Shown here piece after piece: positions 46,555 to 47,018 of a DNA stretch of 64,000 bases; positions within the stretch are counted from its first letter, which is position 1, and each line of letters begins with the position of its first letter. The notes under the pieces were generated by a model. The model saw only the letters and a list, made by a program, of their open reading frames with translations, was not told the origin of the DNA and did no database searches. The stretch lies in the NCBI RefSeq assembly GCF_013122565.1, contig NZ_CP053258.1, one strand, 5' to 3'. The position numbers and the translations under genes were made by a program. The stretch comes from Escherichia coli (GTDB taxonomy: Bacteria; Pseudomonadota; Gammaproteobacteria; Enterobacterales; Enterobacteriaceae).

Positions 46555-46657
46555 AGGTAGCCCGCGTGATTACGCCTTTGTTTTCCCACAAAGTGTAGTC
46601 ATATATTCACGCGGCTTATAGTCAATAATATTGATCAAAAAAATGCAGAAATCTGAA

Positions 46658-46891
46658 TCAGTTGTCCAACTCACTCATATCCTTCACCCGATCGCGGTTA
46701 ATCTGTTCAGTTTGCCCGGTTTGCGCATTTTTGTAAGAGACCAGCCCGGTATCGTCATCAACCTGCGGTTTGCCATCGGTGACGATCGTTTGGTCATCGG
46801 TGGTTCTTACCGCCTGGTTTGAGGAGCAGCCAGCCATGGTGAACATTGCCGCCGCGGCGAAGATTGATGTGATCAATACTTTATTTTGCAT
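46658..46891 (-). CDS. Small lipoprotein of the YgdI/YgdR (DUF903) type, 77 aa
   Basis: Lipobox FTMAGC, then SDGKPQ-D-DTG-YK-INR motif as in YgdI/YgdR; lies between carB and kefF where K-12 has caiF-cai-fix-yaaU. Confidence 0.7.
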   Translation of the reverse strand: MQNKVLITSIFAAAAMFTMAGCSSNQAVRTTDDQTIVTDGKPQVDDDTGLVSYKNAQTGQTEQINRDRVKDMSELDN

Positions 46892-47018
46892 CGTCTTTTC
46901 CTTTGCTTTGCTGTAGTAAGCATTCAGTTTAGGTTAACTGCATGAAAGCAAGTGAAAAAGCAGAAGGTTCTGAGGCGAGTTGCGCCCGGCAACAATAATG
47001 CTGCCGGGCGCGGAGGGG

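Follow-up and report, generated by a model that had tools for sequence, protein, structure and literature searches.

An island-free carB–kefF interval with a YgdI/YgdR-family lipoprotein gene in a rare Escherichia coli lineage

In Escherichia coli K-12 (MG1655), the space between the end of carB at 34038 and the start of kefF at 47246 is taken up by the carnitine-pathway genes caiF and caiEDCBAT, the electron-transfer flavoprotein genes fixABCX, and yaaU, which encodes an MFS transporter. In the 64-kb stretch of E. coli DNA analysed here (contig NZ_CP053258.1; hereafter, the window), the same two genes, at the same position, are separated by only 464 bp, and none of the K-12 genes is found between them. 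How did one chromosomal position come to have such different contents? An earlier note, made from the sequence alone, had put the spacing at about 460 bp, had placed a single 77-aa YgdI/YgdR-like lipoprotein gene in the gap, and had given K-12 about 13 kb of cai and fix genes at this place; all of this proved accurate, the K-12 segment in question being 13,111 bp. With regard to origin, the note left the choice between an ancestral alternative configuration and a deletion or replacement. Our analysis favours the ancestral configuration and excludes a simple deletion from the K-12 arrangement. Overall, we consider it likely that the window holds the island-free haplotype of this locus, that the arrangements containing the cai/fix island are derived, and that, within Escherichia, the island-free and K-12-type arrangements are old haplotypes moved by recombination.

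Anatomy of the interval and its lipoprotein gene

The genes dapB (51865–52686), carA (50261–51436), carB (47019–50243; carbamoyl-phosphate synthase large subunit, 1074 aa), and kefF (46024–46554; KefC-associated quinone oxidoreductase, 176 aa) all lie on the minus strand of the window, as do kefC and then folA, which follow kefF, with apaH next on the plus strand. The orientation of the window is thus the reverse of that of K-12. The identity of kefF is established by the equivalog model NF002044 (265 bits). Three extra ORFs in the folA–apaH region yielded no meaningful match in PADLOC and PHROGs searches.

The carB–kefF gap (46555–47018) contains one credible gene, the 77-aa ORF at 46658–46891 on the minus strand. 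BLAST comparison with K-12 shows 98.2% identity for carB and 97.3% for kefF–folA, and 371 bp of the window (46658–47028) replaces 13,111 bp of K-12 (34032–47142); BLAST blocks and junction alignments together delimit this haplotype-specific segment. On the kefF side, homology with K-12 resumes at 46657, one base past the lipoprotein stop codon (BLAST block 43492–46657), and alignments show that the lipoprotein–kefF intergenic region (46555–46657, minus strand), including the region upstream of kefF, is present in both haplotypes. At the opposite end, the carB product of the window terminates in QIKK*, as it does in Klebsiella michiganensis and Raoultella planticola, K-12 having QIK*. Within the 371 bp, the window accommodates a hairpin, a promoter region, and the lipoprotein gene, the last of which is absent in K-12, whereas twelve K-12-type Cai, Fix, and YaaU proteins produced no tblastn match anywhere in the 64-kb window.

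The product of the 77-aa ORF belongs to a known family. It matches NF033216 (YgdI/YgdR family lipoprotein) over residues 5–75 of 77 with 94.9 bits against a cut-off of 42, and the precomputed annotation of the exact protein, retrieved by sequence look-up as WP_171459847.1 / QJU25590.1, includes Pfam PF06004 (DUF903), a family without assigned function. Direct reading reveals a predicted signal peptide followed by the lipobox M-A-G-C, MQNKVLITSIFAAAAMFTMAG-C22-SSNQ…, with Ser at position +2 relative to Cys22; the orthologues have TVAGC or TMAGC at the lipobox position. In phmmer searches, the mature domain (residues 21–77) matches 5CAI (9e-17), 3BDU, 2RA2, 2JN0/3FIF (YgdR), and 2RD1. With YgdI and YgdR (NF033216, DUF903), the protein shares the signal peptide with its lipobox Cys as well as the motifs TDG..I..DGKP…DDTG..SY and INR..V. 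In contrast to these two, it represents a third paralogue, conserved at a site of its own between carB and kefF and absent from K-12-type E. coli. A PADLOC search with the lipoprotein gave no meaningful match.

The gene evolves under purifying selection, with dN/dS values of 0.04–0.07 between genera and 0.11–0.27 within Escherichia. Against the genes of Citrobacter, Enterobacter, Lelliottia, Kosakonia, and Cedecea, synonymous sites are saturated (dS 1.2–2.1), and therefore the lipoprotein gene did not arrive recently from a different genus. Among Escherichia alleles, dS ranges from 0.04 to 0.20, the upper end being of the order of species-level divergence. The window allele encodes Asp33, the corresponding residue being Gly in all 9 of the 9 other orthologues that were translated.

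The 127-bp spacer between carB and the lipoprotein gene can be aligned end to end with those of Enterobacter asburiae and Trabulsiella, with no extra sequence and with the elements in the same order, namely, hairpin, short spacer, palindrome, −10-like block, and ribosome-binding region; the hairpin, palindrome, −10 region, and Shine-Dalgarno region align across Enterobacter, Trabulsiella, and Kosakonia. The hairpin (46982–47011, minus strand), detected as an inverted repeat and by RNA folding, begins 7 nt past the carB stop codon, has a 13-bp stem, and folds with −31.3 kcal/mol (z = −6.0). Homologous GCCCGG…CCGGGC hairpins are present at this position in Enterobacter, Trabulsiella, Lelliottia, and Huaxiibacter, and the element is native to the carB 3′ end in the island-free haplotype. 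It lacks a U-run and is therefore no canonical intrinsic terminator. Scans of the region 46450–47150 with the intrinsic-terminator and sigma-70 consensus patterns returned nothing; hence, we do not call the hairpin a terminator, and we speak below of a candidate promoter. The Rfam model CRISPR-DR9, which surfaced on the hairpin in an E-value scan of 46000–47600, scored 19.7 bits against a gathering score of 45 and is a chance match.

Upstream of the lipoprotein gene, the palindrome TCAGAACCTTCTGC (CAGAA-CC-TTCTG; 46960–46973, minus strand) is recognizable in sequences from different genera and in the consensus of 75 upstream regions. It is probably a binding site for a regulator, and its form suggests a dimeric one. 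The candidate −10 element CTAAACT (46926–46932, minus strand) was identified by its conservation across genera, and a CCTA core is the best-conserved block in the 75 upstream regions. CTAAACT matches 6 of the 7 positions of CTATACT, the sigma-S-type −10 consensus. Given this resemblance, the lipoprotein gene is probably subject to sigma-S-type regulation. The GGAACCT sequence was also considered as part of a sigma-E promoter and rejected, the spacing to any TCTGA-like −10 element being wrong. The paralogue YgdI is reported to be RpoS-dependent and Cpx-responsive (PMC5437024, PMC6153362); these data concern YgdI and not the carB–kefF paralogue.

Three states of the locus and their distribution

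Comparison of genomes reveals three states of the locus: island-free with the lipoprotein gene (state A), island together with the lipoprotein gene (state C), and island without the lipoprotein gene (state B). We scanned GTDB with one genome per species and found 80 orthologues of the lipoprotein gene. The order carB–lipoprotein–kefF is found in 38 of the 80 species representatives, including those of Enterobacter, Lelliottia, Cedecea, Kosakonia, Buttiauxella, Leclercia, Klebsiella, Raoultella, Trabulsiella, Huaxiibacter, and other genera. The order yaaU–lipoprotein–kefF, with cai/fix upstream, occurs in 15 of 80 (Citrobacter, Pseudocitrobacter, and Intestinirhabdus), carB–lipoprotein–caiF–cai–fix in a single one (Trabulsiella odontotermitis), and a different context of the lipoprotein gene in 12 of 80, Rahnella and Erwinia among them. 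Salmonella enterica shows the order cai–fix–yaaU–lipoprotein–kefF, and E. albertii has the K-12 arrangement. The lipoprotein gene of Salmonella and Citrobacter is orthologous to that of the window, has the same promoter motif, and lies at the same distance (~107 bp) from kefF, but in these bacteria the cai/fix/yaaU block, missing from the window, is situated between the carB hairpin and the lipoprotein promoter.

Within Escherichia, the lipoprotein alleles form a group of their own, with 92–100% amino acid identity, the next best matches (Citrobacter, Enterobacter) being 86–87% identical. The haplotype is present in hundreds of public genomes (one allele alone, P0002, was found on 245 contigs), and every Escherichia context that we recovered has the order carB–lipoprotein–kefF without cai/fix. 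The Escherichia carriers of state A are clade I genomes, CP057504.1 (L088), which is E. fergusonii by the source names of its KefC, an assembly labelled 'unclassified Escherichia', and a run assembly. Among 5,426 complete E. coli genomes, carB–lipoprotein–kefF was found in 2, with 95% identity, and one of these, EC42405, is a cryptic clade I strain (PMC10100065). Gene order and spacing in clade I (EC42405) and E. fergusonii (CP057504.1) are identical to those in the window, and their lipoprotein (P0002) is 94% identical to that of the window. The GTDB species-representative scan returned no Escherichia genome, although L088 and the unclassified or uncultured Escherichia L089 carry the lipoprotein gene; thus, E. 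fergusonii may carry haplotype A only patchily, with E. marmotae and E. ruysiae lacking it, or such genomes may have escaped the scan. Our search of the literature on cai/fix carnitine genes in the cryptic clades, E. albertii, E. fergusonii, and E. marmotae found no paper on this polymorphism.

The exact allele of the window is rare, being present in 2–3 assemblies, including a chromosome of 4,821,968 bp and the Logan assembly of SRR11451224, the latter 100% identical to the window over 36658–56891. The best match of the window among the 5,426 complete RefSeq E. coli genomes has 97.8–98.3% identity over 17–21 kb, whereas a member of a common lineage should have a far closer relative in such a set. 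Because none of these genomes matches it above about 98%, the window represents a deep-branching lineage, rare and labelled E. coli.

Order of events and exchange between lineages

The junctions of the three states record how they are related. In state C, represented by Salmonella and Citrobacter, at most about 10 nt separate the yaaU stop codon from the palindrome, and in Salmonella a shortened hairpin, GCCCG-TC-GGGC, is left beside carB; the island is therefore a clean insertion between hairpin and promoter. In state B, the end of yaaU is fused to the sequence directly after the lipoprotein stop codon, and this junction is essentially the same in K-12 and E. albertii, GGGGTAA-(A/C)TT(G/A)-TTCAGATTTCT, which, at the level of sequence, identifies it with one shared deletion of ~0.35 kb. 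State A in the window shows no scar, IS, transposase ORF, or significant repeats. The earlier note had proposed an alignment of the junction across lineages and a search for repeat scars. The alignment was borne out, the spacer being collinear with that of the island-free genera and the K-12/E. albertii junction being different; the search produced only two-copy repeats of 10–16 nt, a chance-level result. Since state B is devoid of the lipoprotein gene, state A cannot be derived from it by deletion, and it is on this point that the deletion option of the note failed. The ancestral option agrees with the scar-free match of the window to island-free Enterobacteriaceae, an E. fergusonii genome, clade I, and unclassified Escherichia. 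We also observed a pair of repeats flanking the lipoprotein gene, AAAATGCAGAA at 46640 and AAAAAGCAGAA at 46955; that this pair mediated the loss of the lipoprotein gene in the K-12 lineage is speculation, the two copies matching no better than chance.

Thus, we propose that the island-free arrangement common to many Enterobacteriaceae genera, with carB, hairpin, promoter region, lipoprotein gene, and kefF, would have been the starting state. State C would have arisen when the caiF–caiTABCDE–fixABCX–yaaU block, which in E. coli measures ~13 kb, was inserted downstream of the hairpin and directly ahead of the lipoprotein promoter. State B would stem from a subsequent deletion of ~0.35 kb by which E. 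coli sensu stricto and E. albertii lost the lipoprotein gene. This order of events, A to C to B, would explain the junction anatomy. States A and B would then persist in Escherichia as two old alternative haplotypes, with homologous recombination in the conserved flanks moving them between lineages and eroding linkage up to the edge of the non-homologous segment.

The island itself is old. The dS values of island genes equal those of flanking core genes (0.20–0.36 and 0.18–0.51, respectively, between K-12 and E. albertii), and the comparison of K-12 with Salmonella agrees in that the island behaves like the core. By this measure, the cai/fix island appears to be as old in the E. coli line as the core genome, and, therefore, state C may already have existed in the ancestor shared by Escherichia, Salmonella, and Citrobacter. 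If so, haplotype A in Escherichia would require either a scarless loss of the island or an old re-import. The presence of A in Escherichia may thus reflect either continuous inheritance or an old re-entry.

Regardless, exchange at the locus is evident. Over ~3 kb, from the 3′ end of carB through the lipoprotein gene and kefF to the 5′ end of kefC, each 250-bp bin is 97–100% identical between clade I and E. fergusonii, but across dapB and the dapB–carA spacer their identity is only 68–92%, which implies exchange between species at the carB–kefF interval. At sites diagnostic for A carriers versus B carriers, the window is A-type only between 46644 and 47106, the minimal tract with A-type variants. 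Beyond this tract, starting at 46569 on one side and at 47253 on the other, the sequence initially agrees with E. coli sensu stricto: the adjacent ~0.4–0.8 kb on each side is almost uniformly B-type, and a mosaic pattern sets in further out. In contrast, clade I and E. fergusonii display their own diagnostic variants throughout the flanks, whereas in the window such variants are limited to ~0.46 kb within flanks resembling E. coli sensu stricto.

These observations invite a narrower explanation, namely, that the ancestor of the window lineage was in state B and lost the 13-kb block when homologous recombination with a cryptic Escherichia lineage put the 0.37-kb cassette in its place, with crossovers within ~100–230 bp of each junction. 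The confinement of A-type variants to so short a tract between B-type flanks, the exchange between clade I and E. fergusonii at the very same locus, and the affinity of the window allele to those of unclassified or uncultured Escherichia (dS 0.04 to L092 and 0.15 to L089) are all compatible with such an event. However, a lineage that branches as deeply as this one (at most about 98% identity to the 5,426 genomes) could have inherited A vertically, as may clade I, the sister group of E. coli sensu stricto; none of the genomes compared offered a nearly identical donor tract; and the fine mosaic of the outer flanks is equally well explained by repeated overwriting. Short-patch replacement of this kind is a possibility that we hold to be somewhat doubtful. 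Alternatively, the lineage could always have been in state A, with its flanks overwritten by DNA of E. coli sensu stricto.

Two further explanations invoke recent events. That the lipoprotein cassette was imported from a different genus (Citrobacter or Enterobacter, for instance) and displaced the island might be suspected because orthologues are widespread in such genera at the same locus and carB and kefF are conserved enough for recombination. Yet the best protein identity outside Escherichia is 86–87%, the synonymous divergence is saturated for every genus tested, and the flanks of the window are Escherichia-like right up to the junctions, all of which makes this route very improbable. Nor does a recent, e.g., IS-mediated, deletion of cai/fix/yaaU from a K-12-type chromosome, with a small ORF left behind by chance, account for the data, even though such deletions do occur: at least 7 E. 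coli genomes (H3–H9), among the matches listed, have an IS1 between carB and kefF with the cai/fix block gone, and in about 0.5–0.8% of complete E. coli genomes no intact caiB–fixB segment is present. In genomes of the K-12 type, there is no lipoprotein gene for a deletion to expose, the window has neither IS nor transposase and only short repeats expected by chance, the ORF is an orthologue conserved by purifying selection (dN/dS 0.04–0.14), and the spacer is collinear with that of island-free genera. Accordingly, we regard a recent deletion as exceedingly improbable and effectively refuted. The preferred reading remains that of an old island-free haplotype.

Carnitine genes and implications of the polymorphism

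The difference between the window and K-12 is an ordinary gene-content polymorphism of known, annotated components and involves no new family or mechanism. It nonetheless provides three useful examples. A 'core' operon block of K-12 would be an old insertion, with a neighbouring gene lost afterwards, and recombination would have eroded linkage right up to a non-homologous cassette. More tentatively, the carnitine island and the stress-type lipoprotein might constitute a long-lived two-haplotype polymorphism of Escherichia, kept by recombination between species and tracking lifestyle, a possibility that we would not yet favour. If this were true, gut-adapted E. coli sensu stricto and E. albertii would have the island as a fixed trait, whereas E. 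fergusonii, clade I, and rare deep lineages would remain island-free, and the locus would become a candidate for niche-dependent selection on carnitine respiration. In practical terms, the interval could be used as a PCR marker for Escherichia other than sensu stricto (0.46 kb versus 13 kb).

Carnitine reduction by Cai/Fix bears on carnitine-to-trimethylamine metabolism in the gut and on metabolic models based on K-12. From their gene content, strains with haplotype A should be unable to reduce L-carnitine to gamma-butyrobetaine via Cai/Fix. For the window strain, the locus would thus supply a small lipoprotein, probably of the sigma-S type, and no Cai/Fix genes, and the strain likely lacks Cai-dependent carnitine reduction, given that cai/fix genes are missing from the 64 kb and that plasmid matches are few among complete E. 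coli genomes. In a megablast comparison with the 5,426 complete genomes, the caiB–fixB segment is at least 80% present in 5,380, only paralogue-level matches are found in 23 records, and 3 genomes have none; plasmid matches were confined to six places, the one listed measuring 92 bp at 85.6% identity.

The IS1-mediated deletions lead to the same outcome as in the window, in that cai/fix are gone and carB and kefF are brought close together. By contrast, an IS1 marks the junction in those genomes, which lack the lipoprotein gene, whereas the window has the lipoprotein gene with neither IS nor scar. Such deletions are recent and arrive at this loss by another route. Finally, a divergent YaaU, 91% identical and labelled 'E. 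coli' (L094), turned out to come from ordinary E. coli with an internal yaaU rearrangement.

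Placement and loss of the cai/fix block

The carnitine-metabolism genes (the cai/fix block) occupy different positions relative to the lipoprotein gene that lies between carB and kefF. In Trabulsiella odontotermitis (locus L034, 9857-20228), the gene order is carB–lipoprotein gene–caiF–caiD...fixC, that is, the block is located downstream of the lipoprotein gene, whereas in Citrobacter and Salmonella it is located upstream. Given that the Trabulsiella block lies on the other side of this gene, the cai/fix block has entered the carB–kefF neighbourhood on at least 2 separate occasions. 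In the Salmonella genome examined (L096, 10659-14293), three reading frames separate caiF from caiD, namely, a sulfatase gene, one that is YdgH/BhsA-like and an ORF of 140 aa, and gene calling there did not yield caiE.

Among the matches listed in the search of complete E. coli genomes, 7 (H3-H9) carry IS1 between carB and kefF and are devoid of cai/fix/yaaU, and this IS1-associated absence shows that the carnitine genes have also been lost recently and independently in another way. The spacer between the lipoprotein gene and kefF reaches 2.0-5.9 kb in many representatives of Enterobacter, Lelliottia, Leclercia, Raoultella, Kluyvera and Klebsiella (L004, L007, L011, L012, L015, L024, L031, L037, L040, L043, L051, L055-L059, L063, L067 and L078), and looks like a general insertion hot-spot. 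In NCTC86 (L003, 14044-14111), the yaaU stop codon has changed from TAA to TCA, extending the ORF by 21 codons (464 aa vs 443 aa) into the kefF upstream region; kefC of the same genome is annotated as frameshifted.

The lipoprotein gene and its flanking motifs

The scan of GTDB species representatives for the lipoprotein gene (window 46658-46891, minus strand) returned no Escherichia representative; lipoprotein genes with 94-96% identity are present in E. fergusonii CP057504.1 and in an unclassified Escherichia assembly. Either the Escherichia representatives are without the gene or these genomes were missed by the scan and, if the former is the case, the gene would be patchy within species. 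Codon 33 of the window allele (46793-46795) encodes Asp, turning TTDG into TTDD, at a position occupied by Gly in all 9 other orthologues translated, from Escherichia, Citrobacter, Enterobacter, Lelliottia, Kosakonia and Cedecea, as well as in both PDB relatives aligned. The substitution may be destabilising and confined to the rare lineage to which the window belongs.

Two elements upstream of the gene are conserved across genera (window 46926-46973; loci L004-L083), namely, a palindrome, CAGAA-NN-TTCTG, ~90 nt 5′ of the start codon, and a CCTA(A/C)A(A/C/G)T block ~40 nt 5′ of it. This conservation suggests a candidate regulator-binding site combined with a putative sigma-S-like −10 element. 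Beyond the stop codon, at 46635-46657, the TTCAGA..TTCTGC motif recurs in a weaker form.

The carB–kefF tract in clade I and E. fergusonii

Clade I strain EC42405 (L086) and E. fergusonii (L088) share 97-100% identity in each 250-bp bin over locus coordinates ~8500-11500, a stretch spanning the 3′ end of carB, the lipoprotein gene, kefF and the 5′ end of kefC; in dapB and the dapB-carA spacer, identity is only 68-92%. These identity profiles mark the stretch as a recent recombination tract between species. Identity of clade I to E. coli is lower in this tract (~95%) than across lptD–apaH nearby (~97.5%), a difference that suggests import into clade I.

Further haplotype differences

A second difference from the K-12 haplotype lies between apaH and folA, where the window contains a 1.44-kb insert (42050-43491) compared to an interval of ~80 bp in K-12 and an intact ccdAB pair in clade I. 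The insert encodes a 199-aa DUF4291 protein (42096-42695), an unannotated 155-aa ORF (42731-43198) and, on the minus strand, a 59-aa CcdA fragment (43297-43476). These ORFs yielded no matches in PADLOC or NCBIfam and no significant matches in PHROG. The same insert is present in E. fergusonii L088 and one E. coli (L097), and in part in E. albertii (L098). Farther along, nothing in the K-12 stretch compared (16000-65000) corresponds to window 60472-64000, and IS1A is present at the breakpoint in K-12; other E. coli genomes cover this window segment, with the type III effector gene espX1 annotated there. In E. fergusonii (L088, 1-4051), the citrate-lyase genes citDEFXG adjoin dapB, where E. coli has rihC.
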